64,000 nt of DNA from Promethearchaeota archaeon. Lineage in GTDB: Archaea > Asgardarchaeota > Hermodarchaeia > Hermodarchaeales > Hermodarchaeaceae. Positions within the stretch are counted from its first letter, which is position 1. The number at the start of each line of letters is the position of its first letter. A program made the translations under genes and the position numbers. Positions 30,171 to 40,158 of the stretch are shown in pieces. The stretch covers positions 17,895 to 81,894 of the forward strand of contig JBHLPR010000003.1 in the NCBI GenBank assembly GCA_048939245.1, given 5' to 3'. Below the pieces are notes generated by a model, which saw nothing but the letters and a program-made list of their open reading frames with translations, had not been told where the DNA came from and did not search any database.

Positions 30171-31079
30171 TTAATCCAATCCATCGGTTTCCATCAGTGC
30201 TCGAAGCTCTTGCATACTTAGTTTCTGTCCTGCTTGCTGCTTCGCCTTAGCTTGTTCAGCCATTTTTTCCATCACAACTTTCTCTCGTGCCTGGCGAGAC
30301 GCTTTACGTTTGTTTCGAATTGCATCCAATTGGGTTTTCAGTCTATTTTCTTGTCCTCGTAAGACCTCCAATCGGTCACGCATCTCATCTGCTTCTTGGA
30401 GGCATTTAACATACATTTGATGAGCCTCATCAATCTCTGTTCGAGCAGGACCAAGACCTTGCGATAGTTGAATGATGCTCTGATGAGTTTGTTGCGCCTC
30501 TTCCACGAGGGCTATCATTTTTTCATGATGCTCTTGGGCTCTATCTCTAATTTCCTGTATCTCCTGCCATAGTTGGCTCATTTCATCTGTATAGTTTGAT
30601 GTCATTGATTCTTGCGGAGAGGCAGTTTCCATTGCCTTCGATAACCGTTGCAATTCCTCTAAGAGGGCTCTTTCTTCATCTACCGTGAGTGAAGTGGTCT
30701 GTTGTTGCCATTCTAACTCTCGAAACTGCTGTTGCAAATCTTCCAATGGGATTAAATCACCCTGTTTTTCGCGCTGAGATTTTAATTTCTGTAGTTGTTC
30801 CTGTAATTGGTGAGCCTGTTCATTGGCTTCATCTCGTAACGTTTTTTGCCGTTGAACTTCTGCATTCAATTCATCTCTTTTTGTTCGTTGATCGGACATT
30901 TCATTATGGGCTACTGGGGTTTCAGATCGTAGCTCATCTCTTCTATCACGCCATTCCCAGGCTCTATTTCGAGCATCTTTAATTCCACGTAACAACACAC
31001 GTATCGCTGCTTGCACTTTTCGAAGTTGATCCAGAATGATCCCAAATTCATCTTTTTCCGTCTCGGAATCCTTGGCCAT
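30171..31079 (-). CDS. Archaeal coiled-coil protein (COG1340-like)
   Basis: RDELN heptads, LEWQQQTTSL, G.KLS..EL C-terminus. Confidence 0.8.
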   Translation of the reverse strand: MAKDSETEKDEFGIILDQLRKVQAAIRVLLRGIKDARNRAWEWRDRRDELRSETPVAHNEMSDQRTKRDELNAEVQRQKTLRDEANEQAHQLQEQLQKLKSQREKQGDLIPLEDLQQQFRELEWQQQTTSLTVDEERALLEELQRLSKAMETASPQESMTSNYTDEMSQLWQEIQEIRDRAQEHHEKMIALVEEAQQTHQSIIQLSQGLGPARTEIDEAHQMYVKCLQEADEMRDRLEVLRGQENRLKTQLDAIRNKRKASRQAREKVVMEKMAEQAKAKQQAGQKLSMQELRALMETDGLD

Positions 31080-31191
31080 ATTATCCACATTAGTCTTGAT
31101 TATATGCTGTAATGATTCTTGTAGCACAGGACTACTTTGCCTAAATCTTTTTGGTCTCAGAAATAAGTAGACCTGAAAAGGGGCTAATTCA

Positions 31192-32340
31192 ATGACAATC
31201 CCTCTCTTAAATATGGACGACAAAATTCAACTCGTCAGACAGTATATGAACGACTTCAACATTGATGGCTGGCTTATAATTGATTTTAGAGGAACTGACC
31301 CAACGGGACCAGCATTGCTCGGAAATCTTGCTCCCCATTCGCGCTTATATGCAATTCTCATCACGGCTTCCGGTCCTATTACCATAATCAAATCTCCTGT
31401 CGAAGGGAACGAATTAATCGATCTCCACCCCTCGATCAACACCATTGACACCCTGACCCAAACAGCTTTCATGCAGGCTATCCGACAACAGGTCAAAGGC
31501 TTTGAACGTATTGCATTGAACTGTGGTAAGAATCCTCAAACAGATGTCTTACCCGCAGGTAGATTCATCCACCTTCAACAAGTGCTACCTAAAATGAATT
31601 GGGAAACCGGAGAAAACTTGATGCAAATAATCCATTCAGTGCTTACGCCAGCGCAAATGGAAAGTCACAAACATGCCGCTCATACACTCACCAATATTAT
31701 GGGACAAACATTCGATTTCATCAAAGATCGAATCGGTTCTATTACAGAAGCCCAGGTTGCTAATTACATGCATGACCTTCTCCGAAAAGAAAAATTAACC
31801 TTCCTTGAAGGACCAATGGTTGCAGTGCAAGCTAATGCTGCGAATCCACATTACACTCCGGGAAATGTTAGGATTAGGAAGAACCAGATACTAATGATTG
31901 ATCTTTGGGCAAAATGGGACATATATGCTGATATCACACACATGGCTTTTACCGGATCGAAAGTTCCCACCAAGATTCAGACTGTCTGGGATACAGTCCT
32001 TGAAGCTCGAAATACAGCAACAGCAGCTATTAAACCAAATATTCCTGCCAGTATTCCCGATGAGCTGGCTCGTGAAGTCATTATCGCCGCAGGGTTCGAA
32101 AAAGAGATACTACATCGAACAGGACATAGTATCGATACTAGATCTCATGGTCAAGGAGCAAATTTAGACAGCTATGAAATGCCCGAAACACGTCTTTTAC
32201 TCCCCAATACACTCACATCCGTTGAACCTGGAATCTATCTAAAAGGACGGTTTGGAATTCGAAGTGAAATCAACGTTGCAGTCACAGATACAGGGCACCT
32301 TGTTACAACTCCCCCACAAGAAAACTTATTGTGCTTGTAA
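31192..32340 (+). CDS. M24 Xaa-Pro aminopeptidase family
   Basis: ANPHY, D..ADIT, HRTGH, EPGIY, GIRSE. Confidence 0.92.
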   Translation: MTIPLLNMDDKIQLVRQYMNDFNIDGWLIIDFRGTDPTGPALLGNLAPHSRLYAILITASGPITIIKSPVEGNELIDLHPSINTIDTLTQTAFMQAIRQQVKGFERIALNCGKNPQTDVLPAGRFIHLQQVLPKMNWETGENLMQIIHSVLTPAQMESHKHAAHTLTNIMGQTFDFIKDRIGSITEAQVANYMHDLLRKEKLTFLEGPMVAVQANAANPHYTPGNVRIRKNQILMIDLWAKWDIYADITHMAFTGSKVPTKIQTVWDTVLEARNTATAAIKPNIPASIPDELAREVIIAAGFEKEILHRTGHSIDTRSHGQGANLDSYEMPETRLLLPNTLTSVEPGIYLKGRFGIRSEINVAVTDTGHLVTTPPQENLLCL

Positions 32341-32398: not shown

Positions 32399-33190
32399 AT
32401 GGCGGATAAATTTGTTTTATTGCTCGAGTTTTCTTCGGGAATCATCGAACCCCTTCCCCTTTCGGTTGGAGCCCTCACAGAAGATCGAATTGTGATAGTG
32501 ATTGATGAAATCAAAGAACGTGTCTGGTTATGGCAAGGGACTACAACCACTCTTGTCGAACGCCGAGCAGCACAACGTAAAGCACGCTCGCTTGTCAGTG
32601 CGGGATACCAACTTGGTCCATATCGAATTGGACGGGATGTAACCGATATCGAAATTATCGATGGTGATATTCTTGATGACCCTGAAATAAAAGGGTACTA
32701 CGACCAATTAGTTCATACTCTAAGCCAAAATTTTAAAATCACCGAAGGTGTCCTTGGCAGGTTCAGTGGAACCCTCTCTCCTGCTCCACAACCAACAGAA
32801 GGCGTGTCTGCGCCAACACCGAAACCCGCATCAACACCTACACCCATAGAAAAAAGTGTTCCAGCTCAAGAAGAGGTAATAAAAGTCGCTCCTGCTGCAT
32901 CAACGACGGAAGTTGTTGCTCCGAAGCCGACTCGTGAATTACAGGATCTTGGGGTGATTCGGGTCGGAATTCTCATCTCTTCCATTCTCGACTTCTTCCC
33001 CATGTGTTATGTTAGTGCCACTAAAATCGAGGATGGTACACGCTATTCAATAGAAGACCCTGAAGGCATCATCTGTCAAATTGAAGTGGCTAACGGTTCG
33101 GTTCATTTTCTCCAACGGTATGATTTTCGTGGAAGGCGCAAAGACATTCTTGGGATGCTCCGTGACCGATTAGCTGCCGCAGATCTTTAG
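32399..33190 (+). CDS. Gelsolin-like domain protein with Pro/Thr linker and C-terminal domain
   Basis: L..D.IVIVIDE...VWLWQG.....ERRAA...A..L matches the gelsolin repeat consensus. Confidence 0.7.
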   Translation: MADKFVLLLEFSSGIIEPLPLSVGALTEDRIVIVIDEIKERVWLWQGTTTTLVERRAAQRKARSLVSAGYQLGPYRIGRDVTDIEIIDGDILDDPEIKGYYDQLVHTLSQNFKITEGVLGRFSGTLSPAPQPTEGVSAPTPKPASTPTPIEKSVPAQEEVIKVAPAASTTEVVAPKPTRELQDLGVIRVGILISSILDFFPMCYVSATKIEDGTRYSIEDPEGIICQIEVANGSVHFLQRYDFRGRRKDILGMLRDRLAAADL

Positions 33191-33405
33191 CACATCCCTC
33201 TCAAAGGAAAATTTTTGCAGGAACTGTATTCAATACAACACGCAATTCAAGCACAGGGTCAACTTAATAAATACGGTAACAAATTCTAAACCGACCCTTG
33301 ACACAAAATACACTCTGCAGGTACCGAGCTAGTAATTCGGGGGTCAAAATTCCTCAAAGTAAGCAGCGCTTCGAACCCTTTTGGGTCAATCGGGATGTTA
33401 TAAAC

Positions 33406-34137
33406 ATGACACGAATTATAATGTTGGAAATTGGAGGTCTAGGCTTTGTTCGATCTATTCGTCCTGGAGCTCGGAAGCTCCAGGGTGATGTCTGTGTCGC
33501 AGTGGTAGATGAACAAAATAAAGCCCTTTGGTTTTGGATGGGGAGCGGTGTTCAATACGATAAACGCCGGACAGCGAAGGCAAAAGCTGAACAAATCACT
33601 TCGGAAGGGCATCGAATCGGGGATGAACATCTAGCTCGTGGATATACTCTTGTTCCCATAGACCAAGATAAGCTCGAGGACCCCACAACCTCCAATAACT
33701 ACAATAACCTTATTGCACTCCTTGAAGCACCAATGGAAATCAATACGGTTGCTAATCCTAAAGGAACGCTAATCATAGGGCAACTTCAAGTAGGTATTTC
33801 ATCTGCTCCTGTATCCACAAGTACTCAAGCGCCTGCAGAAACTGCTCCCTCTCAAGTAAGTATTACTCCAGGGAAACCTGCTGTTCCAGCCACCACTAAA
33901 AAAACCACTAAATTAGATTTGGAAGCCGCTTTGATGGCTGTTATTCGTGTTCATCAACAGGTGCACATCGAGTATAAAAGCAAGGATGATACTGAAGAAA
34001 TTACCATCGAAGGTATTGATGGGCTTACTCACAAAATGAAACGGAGCAAAGGAAAACTCACCTTCAAATGGGATTCAAAAACTCCGAAAGAGCTCAAACA
34101 ATTGGTTGCCCATGAGCTCAAACGCATCGCAGGCTAA
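33406..34137 (+). CDS. Gelsolin-like domain protein, paralog 2
   Basis: LQGDVCVAVVDE...LWFWMGSG...KRRTAKAKAEQI; S/T/P linker. Confidence 0.68.
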   Translation: MTRIIMLEIGGLGFVRSIRPGARKLQGDVCVAVVDEQNKALWFWMGSGVQYDKRRTAKAKAEQITSEGHRIGDEHLARGYTLVPIDQDKLEDPTTSNNYNNLIALLEAPMEINTVANPKGTLIIGQLQVGISSAPVSTSTQAPAETAPSQVSITPGKPAVPATTKKTTKLDLEAALMAVIRVHQQVHIEYKSKDDTEEITIEGIDGLTHKMKRSKGKLTFKWDSKTPKELKQLVAHELKRIAG

Positions 34138-34164
34138 TGCAGCATTGATTAAAGGCATGAAATA

Positions 34165-34737
34165 ATGAGCTCTCTTCTTTTTGCCTTGCTATTAATTGCT
34201 TCATATTCCCTCGTCGGGGGAGCTATCAAAGTACTGGACCAACTAACAGATCATCCAGAATCTTATCAAAGTCGCCACATCTATCTGTGGTTGCTAACAG
34301 TTATTCTAGTTATTCTAGTCAATATCTGTGTCTTCCTTGATGTCTATACTGCTGTCCTAGCAATTGGAGTAATCTTAGGATTAATTGTGACACACAAAGT
34401 CGATAACAGATATTTCGTCGTTTTAACAATCACCATATTACCTCTAAGTATACTTCGGGTCTTAGGATTCGCATTTACTTCGTTCATTCTCCTAACTCTC
34501 CTCGCAGTTTTTATTGCCTCACTCTTTGATGAATTATTACACGAAAAAGCATCAAAGGTTTCAACCACTGCCTTACACACTCTTCTAACGTATCGCCCTA
34601 TCTTGAAAATCTTGGTGTTAATCCTTCCTTTCTGGAATTTATTAACCTTCATTCACACTTTAGGATTCTGGGGGTTTGATTTTGCATATGAATTGGTTGC
34701 ATACTACTTTCGCGCCTCTTCCCTTCCAGAAGCTTAA
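34165..34737 (+). CDS. Hypothetical multi-pass membrane protein
   Basis: About 6 TM segments; K..DQ..D, KVDN and DE..HE motifs. Confidence 0.75.
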   Translation: MSSLLFALLLIASYSLVGGAIKVLDQLTDHPESYQSRHIYLWLLTVILVILVNICVFLDVYTAVLAIGVILGLIVTHKVDNRYFVVLTITILPLSILRVLGFAFTSFILLTLLAVFIASLFDELLHEKASKVSTTALHTLLTYRPILKILVLILPFWNLLTFIHTLGFWGFDFAYELVAYYFRASSLPEA

Positions 34738-34839
34738 GTTCACATAGATTAAACCTCCAAATCGAGTCCTTCTCTCCTGGTTTGGAAAGGTTTAAGTCGG
34801 CTCAATTGCCAAAGAAACACACAAAGGTGAGGCTAAACC

Positions 34840-35082
34840 ATGAAAGCAAATATCTCGCTTTCCTATAGGGGATCAAGTCGTGAAGAGAATGCAACTAAGA
34901 CTGGCTGGATTAATTTACTACTAAACCAACATGGACGGATAATTAGTAAATTACCTCTGGGGGAAGGACGATATCATTTTGTCATTGAACTCGAGGACTT
35001 GGAACGATTTACCCAGTCCCTTTTTGAGTTCACACGGCAAAATCCTTGGCTACGTGTAGAAAAAGTCTCAACTCACGCTTGA
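34840..35082 (+). CDS. Small hypothetical protein (ACT/ferredoxin-fold-like)
   Basis: GGTGAGG RBS; alternating beta/alpha pattern. Confidence 0.6.
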   Translation: MKANISLSYRGSSREENATKTGWINLLLNQHGRIISKLPLGEGRYHFVIELEDLERFTQSLFEFTRQNPWLRVEKVSTHA

Positions 35083-35097
35083 GACCCTACAGGATTT

Positions 35098-36504
35098 TCA
35101 ACCGAGAATGAACCGTTGACCAATTCTAGGGGCTATTGCAGGGCATCTAAGAAGACCTTTGGCAGTATTTGCTAGACTCTTACAGGCTCCAGGACTCCCA
35201 TGAATACAAAACACGGTTTGTGGAGGATTTCGCCGAAGGGAAGCAAGAAATTCCTTTAATTCATTCTTATCCGCGTGAGCTGAAAACCCGTACAAACGTT
35301 CAACTTGCGTCTTTACCCTTTTTTTGCGTCCATATATTGTTACAGTTCTAGCACCGCGAACTATCTGCTGACCCAGAGTTCTAGGGGCTTGAAAGCCGAT
35401 TACCAGTAAGTGGGTGTTTTTGTTTTCGATGCGACGATAAAGGTGCCTAAGGATGCGTCCTCCGTTCATCATTCCCGAACCTGCAACAATCATGATTGGT
35501 CCTTGTTGCTGGCTAAGCTGGTCGCTTTCATATTGGCGTTCCACAAACTGGAGACCTTTAAACTCCAGAGGGGCGTCACCAGATTGTATCAAATCCCAGG
35601 TTTCTTCATCAAAACATTCTCTATGGTGTGTGAAAATCTCTGTGGCCCTAATAGCTAAGGGGGAATCAATAGCAACTGGAATAACTGGGACACGAGCATT
35701 TTCTACAAGTAAGTTGAGTGCATAGATGAGCGCTTGGGTCCGGCCAATAGCAAAAGCGGGAACCAAAATGTGGCTTCGATGACGATACGCTTTTACAATA
35801 ATTCGCTCAAAACGTCTAATGGTTTTTGAAAAAGGTTCATGAGTACGATTAGCATATGTCGATTCGCATAGAAGGTAGGTCGCACTATCAGGAAAATCCG
35901 GATCTCGAATTATTGGTGCATTCTTCCGTCCAATATCTCCCGAATCAACAAGATGGATAATTTTTCCTCGCTCTTCTGCCCACACTTCAATAATGGATGA
36001 TCCCAGTATGTGTCCGGCATCTCGAAATCGGAGCGTCACATTTCCTGGAAGACTCTTCTTTTCACCATATTTCAGAATACGCAATTTGTTGATAGTTCGT
36101 TCTACATCTCGAATTGTAAATAATGGCTCAATTGAAGGATGATGGTTGCTCTTCGACTCGCTCTGATGAATTCTGGCTCTGGCAGCATCTTCTTCCTCGC
36201 TTTCTGCAACATCTTGAAGAAGCATTGAGCAAAGCTCCGCGGTCGCTGCAGTCACATAGATCGGTCCTTGAAAACCTAATCGAACAAGAATTGGTAAGCG
36301 ACCGCAATGATCGAGGTGTGCATGGGATAGAATTACAAAATCAATTTCAGATGGATCGAATTCAAAGGAACTGTTCCGTTGGTATTGTTTTGCTGGGTTA
36401 CCTTGGAAGAGTCCACAATCAATAAGAAACGAAGTTGATTTTGTCTTAATGTGGTAAAGACTCCCAGTTACAGTCTGTCCAGCCCCATGAATCACTAGTT
36501 CCAA
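35098..36504 (-). CDS. MBL-fold beta-CASP ribonuclease
   Basis: SHAHLDHCG, AGHILGS, SGD, ESTY, FAIGRTQ, FSAHAD. Confidence 0.93.
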   Translation of the reverse strand: MELVIHGAGQTVTGSLYHIKTKSTSFLIDCGLFQGNPAKQYQRNSSFEFDPSEIDFVILSHAHLDHCGRLPILVRLGFQGPIYVTAATAELCSMLLQDVAESEEEDAARARIHQSESKSNHHPSIEPLFTIRDVERTINKLRILKYGEKKSLPGNVTLRFRDAGHILGSSIIEVWAEERGKIIHLVDSGDIGRKNAPIIRDPDFPDSATYLLCESTYANRTHEPFSKTIRRFERIIVKAYRHRSHILVPAFAIGRTQALIYALNLLVENARVPVIPVAIDSPLAIRATEIFTHHRECFDEETWDLIQSGDAPLEFKGLQFVERQYESDQLSQQQGPIMIVAGSGMMNGGRILRHLYRRIENKNTHLLVIGFQAPRTLGQQIVRGARTVTIYGRKKRVKTQVERLYGFSAHADKNELKEFLASLRRNPPQTVFCIHGSPGACKSLANTAKGLLRCPAIAPRIGQRFILG

Positions 36505-36546
36505 GATATCTGGCTCCTCTCAGGTGTAGTAGATAGTACTGAGAAA

Positions 36547-37500
36547 TTAGCCAAAAAGGTCAAACTCAGAGGATCCACCATTGTTGCCATTCTCTTCTTC
36601 ATTATCCACAGCTTCTTCCCTTTCTTCTTGTTCTTCTTCTTTGGTCTCATCATTTTCTTTGGGAGGATTCTGGCTAATCTTGGATAGTTGTTCACGCATG
36701 GATTCCATCACAGAAACCGGTTTGTCCTCAGTGGAAGGAGTAACCCCCCTTTCCAGCTGAGTGGATGCAATGAATATCTGTCCTTCCGCTGCCAGTTGAG
36801 GTTGTTGACCGAAGCATCGAGAAAACGCCTCGATATCTTCTTGAGCTTCTGCTCGAATCTCTGAGAAAAGGATAGCATCTCCTTGACAGAAAAACCGCAT
36901 TTGTAAACGTATAACTGAAACCTGAAATTCATTGGGGCCAATTGGGTTCATAGTGGCCTGTCCGTAACAGTCAGCTACAGCGAAAAGAACCTTAGTTGCT
37001 AGTTGTTCCTCATAGGTTAGTATCCGGCGACGAATTGGAGTTACTTTCCGCACAGGTTCAGGCATAATTGTCTGCTCAATAACCTCAACCTTATCTTTGA
37101 AGGCTTCTTCAAATGTTGATATCTTCTCTTCTTCTTTAACAACAACCAGATACTCTGAAGTCTTCTGATGGGTATCAAGAAGCTTCTGAAGAAGAGTGGC
37201 TTTTGGGCTTTTTAGTTCCCCCGGAACTTCAATGAAGGTCGTACATTTTGTGCCAAAGTGCGTGTCTTCGACACGGGTTCCATTCTTCATTATAAATCGC
37301 GCTTGACGAAGAGCTGTTGTACGTTGTAGCATTGAAGTTCCTCGTCCGAGCCACACCCAAACGATACCCTCTGGTTCATCGACAATAAGGATAGATCTTC
37401 CATCGACGAGGTGGTTAGGATTCCAGTGGAGCGCTTGCATTTCGCCTCCTTCACCTAGGATTTCAATCATCCCAATGAATTGTTTCATTTCTCGTATCAC
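36547..37500 (-). CDS. Gelsolin-like domain protein, paralog 3, with acidic tail
   Basis: LVDGRSILIVDE...VWVWLGRG...QRTTALRQARFI; Glu-rich tail ending EFDLFG. Confidence 0.68.
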   Translation of the reverse strand: MIREMKQFIGMIEILGEGGEMQALHWNPNHLVDGRSILIVDEPEGIVWVWLGRGTSMLQRTTALRQARFIMKNGTRVEDTHFGTKCTTFIEVPGELKSPKATLLQKLLDTHQKTSEYLVVVKEEEKISTFEEAFKDKVEVIEQTIMPEPVRKVTPIRRRILTYEEQLATKVLFAVADCYGQATMNPIGPNEFQVSVIRLQMRFFCQGDAILFSEIRAEAQEDIEAFSRCFGQQPQLAAEGQIFIASTQLERGVTPSTEDKPVSVMESMREQLSKISQNPPKENDETKEEEQEEREEAVDNEEENGNNGGSSEFDLFG

Positions 37501-38970: not shown

Positions 38971-39480
38971 CTATTTTTCTCGGAGTTCCCAAATACAAGA
39001 ATCTGCGCCCCAGGTTTTGCACTGAACCTCTTCGCATTCACTACTAAACCCGCGGAGTGTGAGTACGTGTTGAAATACACCACTTAGAATATTGCAATAC
39101 TTCAATCCATCAAATTCCTCAGACATCCGAATATTTTGACAGATTGGGCAGTCTTTGAAGATGTAGACGATTTTCCTTTCGGCTTCATCATAATATGCCT
39201 CATCGAAGGCTCTGCCCAACATTACTCGCGTTGCAAGGGTAAAGGTATCAAGGAAACCATCAAAGGTAGTGGCATGCTGGCCAATAGTATCGCTATATTC
39301 AAATAGTAAAGTCTCAGCCATGGCATTGCCTAAGCGTAGTAGCTTCTCATTTGCGAGGTTAACGTCGCCTTTAGTCGTAAGCAAAATGTCGTCAATCACT
39401 GCTGCAACCAAAGCTTGGAATGCATTAAGTGAGGTTTTTTCCATCTTAAAATGCCAACCGATCCAACCTTTGACACCCAT
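38971..39480 (-). CDS. V4R domain protein
   Basis: DCPIC...YCNILSGVF...EVQCKTWGADSC. Confidence 0.82.
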   Translation of the reverse strand: MGVKGWIGWHFKMEKTSLNAFQALVAAVIDDILLTTKGDVNLANEKLLRLGNAMAETLLFEYSDTIGQHATTFDGFLDTFTLATRVMLGRAFDEAYYDEAERKIVYIFKDCPICQNIRMSEEFDGLKYCNILSGVFQHVLTLRGFSSECEEVQCKTWGADSCIWELREK

Positions 39481-39545: not shown

Positions 39546-40031
39546 CTAAACACGTTTTTCGAAATCTACAAGACCCCGCTTTTGCAGGTCTAAAAGCATC
39601 CGCATGGCAATGAAAAACTGTAATCCCATTTTTTCTCCAATCTCTTGGAGGGTTGCTTTTCCATCACATAAACTAAGCATACGAAATTCTGTAATCGACA
39701 GTTTCTGCTTCTCCAAATCGGCAATAACCCGAGGGACAATTCGTCGGCTTTTTGTTCCCACCATGGGGGGTCTTGTTGGAGGTGCTGGTTGAGGTACAGC
39801 ACCGGGTTGGGCTTTTGTTATTTCTACCTCATTTGCTGCATGAATCTCAGATACTTCATGACCCCGTTCGACAAGATCCTGATCTAGGTAAATGGTGATG
39901 ACATGGGACGGCTCACCATGAACATATGAATAGGGGAATGGAAAGACTGTTTGTCGCTCAATGATATCCGGCGGGACGTCTATCGCAATGTATGCCTTAC
40001 ACATCTCACAATAGGTGTAAACGACTGGCAT
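39546..40031 (-). CDS. Hypothetical protein: Zn-binding N-terminus and C-terminal winged helix
   Basis: CEMC...YVHG..H motif; LCDGKATLQEI...LQKRGLV. Confidence 0.72.
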   Translation of the reverse strand: MPVVYTYCEMCKAYIAIDVPPDIIERQTVFPFPYSYVHGEPSHVITIYLDQDLVERGHEVSEIHAANEVEITKAQPGAVPQPAPPTRPPMVGTKSRRIVPRVIADLEKQKLSITEFRMLSLCDGKATLQEIGEKMGLQFFIAMRMLLDLQKRGLVDFEKRV

Positions 40032-40158
40032 CGACGAGCTCCCAGGATTTTTACCGAGTATATAGCACAAGAACCGTTCTTAACGTTTCCTTCTAAAATA
40101 CTTTAAGTCGGTAGAAATTCCAGTAAATCTTGAAAGTGCAAGAAGACGAATGCTCGTA

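Follow-up and report, generated by a model that had tools for sequence, protein, structure and literature searches.

Do the gelsolin-like genes that cluster in the genome of a Promethearchaeota archaeon belong to the actin regulators already described from Asgard archaea, and what would their products do in the cell? Eukaryotes have their closest known relatives in the Asgard archaea, whose actin regulators inform reconstructions of the origin of the cytoskeleton; to our knowledge, the biochemistry of Asgard gelsolins to date comprises ProGel, one 1DGelX and a few 2DGels. We analyzed a stretch of 64,000 nucleotides (referred to as the window) of contig JBHLPR010000003.1 (assembly GCA_048939245.1, positions 17,895 to 81,894; Hermodarchaeaceae), in which three genes, here called P1, P2 and P3, each encode one gelsolin domain and, after it, a non-gelsolin C-terminal region, as judged from AlphaFold models of P1 and P3 and from alignments. 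We are nearly certain that the three are diverged paralogs and that their N-terminal domains adopt the gelsolin fold, which serves eukaryotes to sever and cap filaments of actin. They constitute a separate, more divergent and uncharacterised branch of the known Asgard gelsolin toolkit, and not a new kind of system.

Three conserved paralogous genes

P1 (32399-33190, forward strand) encodes a protein of 263 amino acids (aa), P2 (33406-34137, forward strand) one of 243 aa, and P3 lies on the reverse strand (36547-37488). A first-pass annotation of the sequence had picked out open reading frames (ORFs) at 32399-33190 and 33406-34137 on the forward strand and at 36547-37500 on the reverse strand, and all three were recovered at these coordinates. 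They are real genes, because each of the three proteins has 50-70 homologs conserved at 40-96% identity in Asgard metagenome-assembled genomes (MAGs). The nearest database homologs carry the labels Thorarchaeota or Promethearchaeota (e.g. P0072, 96% identity), all homologs are annotated as hypothetical, and a precomputed Pfam domain is found in none. The ATG start of P2 agrees with the length of its homologs, about 240 aa. In the case of P3 the ORF holds, but not its proposed start: ATG 37488 is probably used rather than GTG 37500, since the homologs open with MKQ(Y/F)IGMIE and a GGTGA Shine-Dalgarno-like motif occurs about 7 nucleotides (nt) before the ATG, so that the product would have 313 aa instead of the 317 aa that result from the GTG.

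The paralogy proposed for the three genes is borne out by comparisons of both single sequences and profiles. BLASTP aligns P1 with P2 over their full length (E = 4e-17), and P3 with P1 and with P2 over the N-terminal part (E = 3e-8 and 9e-8, respectively). When the family alignments were cut to the N-domains (approximately 120 residues) and compared profile to profile with hhalign, the E-values were 5e-17 for P1 and P2, and 5.5e-15 and 2.8e-11 for the other pairs. At the level of individual residues, P1 reads VIVIDE-IKER-VWLWQG and then R55, A58 and A62; P2 reads VAVVDE-QNKA-LWFWMG and then R54, A57 and A61; and P3 reads LIVDE-PEG-IVWVWLG and then R60, A63 and A67. The common pattern is thus hhhDE-x3-4-hWhWxG-x7-R-x2-A-x3-A; the motif first suggested can be read in all three translations, but the spacer after the glycine of WxG has seven residues, not six.

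The gelsolin fold of the N-terminal domains

Together with the long helix, the gelsolin signature hhhD-x(3-4)-h-W-x-G is present in P1 (VIVIDEIKERVWLWQG), P2 (VAVVDEQNKALWFWMG) and P3 (LIVDEPEGIVWVWLG), with the W and G of WxG invariant in the alignment of each family; WxG is a signature of gelsolin (PMC9433394). The AlphaFold model of P1 has a mean predicted local distance difference test (pLDDT) score of 78.8, with N-domain blocks at 83-92, and shows the order of strands and helices of a gelsolin domain, with a mixed central beta-sheet between one long and one short helix. The top matches of the Foldseek search consist of gelsolin-family chains and Sec23 only. Profile searches lead to the same relatives: with the P1 family profile, the top three matches in the PDB are Asgard 2DGels and ProGel (7whf_G at E = 0.02, then 7whg_G and 7c2f_B; E = 0.02-0.8). 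A second and stronger route runs through a ProGel-like protein of 321 aa encoded in the same genome, which matches the P1 N-domain profile at E = 1.6e-8 and the sequence of the ProGel crystal (7c2f) at E = 6.7e-11, and which, on these sequence scores, is a bridge from the P1 N-domain to ProGel. Compared directly with phmmer, P1 matches 7c2f at E = 1.2 and P3 has no ProGel match. Fold order, structural matches and profile link all agree with the first-pass annotation, which had recognised the core of a gelsolin repeat in the N-terminal pattern.

Two acidic residues, D29 and E54, are invariant in the P1 family, and the helix-start position is K in P2 and Q in P3. In a hand alignment the register of D29 is two residues off the canonical GD...hhhD spacing, and the equivalence of the two residues to the type II calcium-site pair is thus uncertain.

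Linkers and C-terminal domains

The gelsolin-fold domain of P1 (residues 1-126, 32399-32776) is followed by a disordered linker rich in P, T, S and A (residues 127-177, 32777-32929) and by an alpha+beta C-domain of helix, four strands and helix (residues 178-263, 32930-33187). P2 has the same layout, with a gelsolin-like domain (residues 1-125, 33406-33780), a linker (33781-33900) and a basic C-domain (residues 166-243, 33901-34134). On the reverse strand, P3 consists of a gelsolin-fold domain (37135-37488), a short linker (37021-37134), an acidic alpha+beta domain of helix, four strands, helix and strand (residues 161-246, 36763-37020), and a C-terminal part with a helix and a disordered acidic tail (36550-36762). 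The linker in P1 and P2 comprises 36-90 residues, is P/T/S/A-rich and varies in length and sequence; it is disordered in the model of P1. The spacer of P3 is shorter, acidic and partly helical.

A linker followed by a module of a helix and a beta-meander had been proposed for all three proteins, and the AlphaFold models agree with it for two of them. In P1 the C-domain has a helix (181-197), four antiparallel strands (204-237) and a second helix (247-260), with pLDDT about 90; in P3 it has a helix (163-179), four strands (183-217), a helix (220-230) and an extra strand (235-244), with pLDDT above 90. For P2, the alignment suggests an end module of the same helix and strand type. Whether this is one shared domain, as the first-pass annotation held, has a divided answer. 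The C-domains of P1 and P2 are probably one domain, as remote homologs: the full-length BLASTP alignment spans both, hhalign pairs them in register (E = 0.036), and the profile of the P2 C-domain matches, again in register, the C-domains of distant P1-type proteins (single-comparison E-values of 7.8e-5, 2e-3 and 0.015). The C-domain of P3 shares with that of P1 the order of helix, four strands and helix, but has no sequence signal to P1 or P2 (hhalign E = 0.13 and 0.75, respectively). Among the fetched proteins, hmmsearch gave only weak in-register signals between the C-domains of P1 and P2, and no signal for that of P3. The net charges of the three C-domains are -1.3 (P1), +1.9 (P2) and -5.7 (P3).

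An exhaustive search of 1.84 billion representative proteins with the profile of the P1 C-domain returned 14 matches at E <= 1e-3. The credible matches that were inspected, other than three giants of 1477-5692 aa matched in many short pieces, show the architecture of gelsolin domain, linker and C-domain, represent fragments, or have the C-domain by itself or in N-terminal position. Among them, the C-domain appears to travel with this branch of gelsolins. In the ESM Atlas, the P1 C-domain resembles only Asgard hypothetical clusters when compared by features (0.80, a mere lead), and unrelated small alpha+beta proteins when compared by structure.

The tail of P3 (...EEENGNNGGSSEFDLFG) has a net charge of about -11 and a conserved end, [DE][FY][DE]LF(G/D/S), with an invariant F316. 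It recalls aP1, the ribosomal stalk protein that this genome encodes (L030:1495-1800), whose tail is likewise acidic and ends with GLGALFG (...EEVAGLGALFG), and also the GFGLFD end of the eukaryotic ribosomal stalk. A pattern search of the 3866 ORFs of the genome for this combination matched P3 alone, which rules out the motif as the mark of a wider family in this genome.

Relation to described gelsolins

The first-pass annotation was right that one-domain gelsolins with an extra domain occur in Asgard archaea: these are the 1DGelX proteins with their domain X (PMC7444086). [quoted passage not shown] The two architectures are alike in that one N-terminal gelsolin domain is followed by a spacer (proline-rich in 1DGelX) and a non-gelsolin C-terminal part, and they may also share a logic, in which the extra domain would supply a second contact that enables severing. 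They differ in that P1-P3 are only 13-19% identical to ProGel and the 2DGels, and in that the C-domain is of the alpha+beta type, not a coiled coil. P1-P3 are therefore distinct from the published 1DGelX and 2DGel, and are set apart from the characterised 1DGelX by its descriptors, because two other proteins of the same genome fit 1DGelX much better. The first is the ProGel-like protein of 321 aa mentioned above (G000:C28, L038:1408-2373), which has its ProGel-like domain at the N-terminus; the second, of 288 aa (G000:C51, L039:1390-2256), is 33% identical to a ProGel segment of 36 residues. Both have a proline-rich spacer, a beta-rich C-terminal part and a Lys-rich end, and neither was detected in a genome search with the Pfam Gelsolin profile at E <= 1. 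The profile of the P1 C-domain does not match the 321-aa protein (E = 0.44).

The remaining known types are further removed. ProGel of Thorarchaeota (PDB entry 7C2F; Akil et al. 2020, PMC7444086) has nothing beyond the gelsolin domain itself (about 92 aa), whereas P1-P3 add a linker and a C-domain at 14-19% identity; its actin binding is known from a crystal structure, whereas that of P1-P3 is putative. The 2DGels (7C2G/7C2H, 7WHF, 7WHG) and the eukaryotic proteins gelsolin, villin, adseverin and fragmin have two to six tandem domains and calcium control, whereas P1-P3 have one domain each. Sec23 and Sec24 of COPII carry a gelsolin-like domain as one of five in a chain of 700-900 aa, the others being the zinc-finger, the trunk, the beta-barrel and the helical domain. 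P1-P3, with 243-313 aa, have none of the other Sec23/24 domains and no Pfam Sec23/24 match, and beyond the gelsolin fold consist of a linker and a domain of about 85 aa only.

The genome thus holds several types side by side. Two canonical 2DGels, with two Pfam Gelsolin domains each, are encoded at C16 and C37. A fourth P1-type domain, stand-alone and degenerate (107 aa; G000:C6, L009:374-697), matches the P1 N-domain profile by hhalign at E = 9.4e-6 and keeps the TSLIERRTALRLA helix without the WxWxG strand. The genome also encodes a lokiactin-type actin and two genes resembling those of actin-related proteins (ARPs), and its actin fragment is 99% identical to the Thor actin of the same genus.

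Distribution of the family among Asgard archaea

The P1 family profile matches 291 of 400 sampled Asgard genomes, including 74 of the 90 of high quality, and 64 of 85 genera. All 18 other genomes of the family to which the window belongs have matches, usually two to four each; full-length matches occur in several other Asgard families, and a few families are without a match or nearly so. Distant members retain the layout of a gelsolin domain, a P/T-rich linker and an alpha+beta domain of about 85 aa. In six more distant Asgard genomes we found one P1-type gene each, full length and at 27-34% identity, and in the roughly 8 kb to its left and right, as far as the contig extended, no homolog of P2, P3 or the membrane protein. 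Because these distant genomes carry a P1-type gene alone, P1 represents the ancestral member, with P2 and P3 as lineage-specific duplicates whose C-domains have strongly diverged. A canonical Asgard gelsolin query finds the P1-type gene at 31-32% identity in three genomes of a further Asgard family (f19), each a single contig, and for this reason earlier counts of "gelsolin homologues" or "1DGelX" may already contain members of the P1-type family.

Gene order and synteny

P1, P2, a membrane-protein gene and a gene for an 80-aa protein follow one another on one strand, and P3 is convergent on the other. The polytopic membrane protein (34165-34737, forward strand; 190 aa) has about five hydrophobic segments and its gene begins 27 nt 3' of P2; the 80-aa protein (34840-35082, forward strand) belongs to no known family and is an optional neighbour, present in the relative contigs L011, L012 and L013 and absent in L010. 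Both genes, which the first-pass annotation placed downstream of P2 in the same orientation, are there, and from them came a model in which P1-P3, possibly with the two neighbours, form a heteromeric complex for the anchoring or regulation of actin at the membrane. Consistent with such a complex, P1 and P2 are adjacent in L011, L012 and four MAGs (by NCBI locus tags), or, in L010 and L013, have a single small helical gene between them; the membrane-protein ortholog of L010 keeps the same position at 40% identity; and the C-domains of P2 and P3 have complementary net charges (+1.9 and -5.7). The membrane protein, however, has ESM Atlas feature look-alikes at 0.94-0.95, namely hypothetical proteins of about 185-195 aa in Thermoplasmatota and Methanobacteriota. 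Apparently it is a member of a broader, uncharacterised family of archaeal membrane proteins and, given look-alikes at 0.95 in non-Asgard archaea, is not specific to archaea that bear gelsolins. Moreover, the 80-aa gene is dispensable, as L010 lacks it, a beta-CASP nuclease gene is inserted into the cluster in some genomes, and the P1-type gene stands alone in distant Asgard genomes.

The synteny itself also speaks against a specific association. The cluster, whose conservation in relatives the first-pass annotation had proposed to check, is kept in the genus of the window and in related contigs down to 42-47% identity, but not in the six distant genomes with a lone P1-type gene. Where it is kept, an M24 peptidase gene is followed by P1, in some cases the helical gene, P2, the membrane-protein gene and, optionally, the 80-aa gene; then come, in some cases, the beta-CASP nuclease, P3 on the opposite strand, and the genes for HMG-CoA reductase, a V4R protein, a winged helix-turn-helix (wHTH) protein and a LarA-like protein. 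Upstream, the arginase, DUF7121 and Arf-like GTPase genes are likewise conserved across relatives. Because the surrounding housekeeping genes are equally conserved, with the whole 15-kb neighbourhood syntenic, this gene order is weak evidence of functional coupling, and adjacency reflects general synteny as much as function. All told, we regard the membrane-anchored heteromer as improbable.

Several neighbouring genes deserve description in their own right. The gene between P1 and P2 in L010 and L013 (L010:8941-9423, L013:3656-4105) encodes an all-helical, coiled-coil-like protein of 149-160 aa, which rules it out as a fourth gelsolin; the window has only a 215-nt gap at this place. Between the 80-aa gene and P3, the window and L011/L012 carry a beta-CASP/RMMBL metallo-beta-lactamase nuclease gene (aCPSF-like; 35098-36504, reverse strand), and since it is missing at the same position in L010 and L013 we take it to be a variable insertion outside the module. 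The membrane-protein gene sits among genes of isoprenoid-lipid synthesis (polyprenyl synthetase, HMG-CoA reductase). A protein of 169 aa (38971-39480, reverse strand) has sub-threshold Pfam matches to V4R (E = 2.2e-4) and TRAPP (E = 0.057); its gene keeps its place beside HMG-CoA reductase in relatives, and the wHTH gene (39546-40070) comes after it. A DUF7121 coiled-coil protein (30171-31223, reverse strand; E = 2.9e-19) is encoded directly upstream of the M24 peptidase and P1 pair in all syntenic contigs.

Actin regulators or adaptors

In vitro work shows that gelsolin-domain proteins of Asgard archaea bind actin and regulate it (PMC7444086, PMC9433394), and in L. ossiferum five gelsolin homologues co-immunoprecipitate with Lokiactin (PMC13716822). 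Because published proteins of this kind regulate actin and co-purify with Lokiactin, because the closest structural relatives of the N-domains are actin-bound Asgard gelsolins, and because conservation, both inside each family and from one to another, peaks in the long helix, we lean towards the view that the N-domains of P1-P3 bind Asgard actin. This helix, T-S-L-V/I-E-R-R-A-A-x-R-x-A, is conserved best within and between P1, P2 and P3 and is kept even in the degenerate fourth copy. It is the actin-contact element in gelsolin G1 and ProGel, and in the P1 family an invariant exposed stripe, R56/R60/S64, lies on the face that contacts actin in these two proteins. Considering all lines of evidence, we favour, with moderate confidence, the reading of P1-P3 as three cytosolic gelsolin-domain paralogs that act as actin regulators.

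Four points weigh against this reading. The Pfam Gelsolin profile (PF00626) stays below threshold, with no match for P1 and P2 and a best E-value of 0.57 for P3 (indeed, neither Pfam nor NCBIfam had a match above threshold for P1-P3, the membrane protein or the 80-aa protein). In structural and Foldseek alignments, the actin-bound gelsolins of Asgard archaea are only 13-19% identical to P1-P3. The key apolar position Ile103 of gelsolin G1 is Arg in the P1 family; by a hand alignment ProGel also has Arg there. Finally, the binding of actin by P1-P3 themselves is something that we infer. These points leave room for an alternative, in which P1-P3 are gelsolin-fold adaptors that do not bind actin, and the divergent domain has been re-used for another partner, as in Sec23/24. 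Conceivable partners include actin-related proteins, small GTPases, components of membrane trafficking and lipid surfaces, with the basic conserved helix as the interface. In keeping with this, the conserved face of the helix is rich in Arg and Lys and not apolar, the genome has two ARP-like genes, and the neighbours include eukaryote-like genes, namely the V4R/TRAPP-like protein and, upstream in syntenic relatives, an Arf/Ras-like GTPase. Yet these neighbours belong to a block of housekeeping genes that is syntenic in its entirety, P1-P3 lack any other Sec23/24 domain, and the profile link leads to proteins of the ProGel and 1DGelX type, so that we consider the adaptor role rather unlikely, if clearly more credible than the membrane-anchored complex.

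Duplication in a Thorarchaeota-type lineage gave rise to P2 and P3, which have stayed clustered with P1. If P1-P3 are actin regulators, their action might be pictured as follows. The N-domains would bind the lokiactin-type actin of the organism through the long helix, and a second contact, through self- or hetero-association, with the side of the filament, or with a partner, could come from the C-domains on their tethers (that of P1 near-neutral, that of P2 basic and that of P3 acidic). With such a contact, a single domain that binds weakly might become a regulator of filaments, comparable to the role given to domain X in the proposal of Akil et al. for 1DGelX (PMC7444086). In P3, the acidic tail that ends in the FxLF motif would be a likely docking peptide for some partner. 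A bolder version, to which we give little credence, has P1-P3 associate through their differently charged C-domains into a multi-headed gelsolin of separate polypeptides on flexible tethers, with the tail of P3 recruiting a factor such as a translational GTPase; eEF1A bundles actin in eukaryotes. It would be the non-covalent counterpart of the tandem-domain gelsolins of eukaryotes.

Conclusions

The P1-type proteins add to the Asgard gelsolins one more family, which goes unrecognised by Pfam and NCBIfam, occurs in about three quarters of the surveyed Asgard genomes, and has a conserved C-domain of its own; in one Thorarchaeota-type lineage this family has been triplicated and clustered. If P1-P3 bind actin, the ancestral Asgard toolkit would have been broader than the three published architectures, and the family would offer a natural test of how a second, non-gelsolin module affects a single gelsolin domain. 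Should they prove not to do so, prokaryotes would have in them a first example of a gelsolin domain that serves a different purpose, as it does in Sec23/24.

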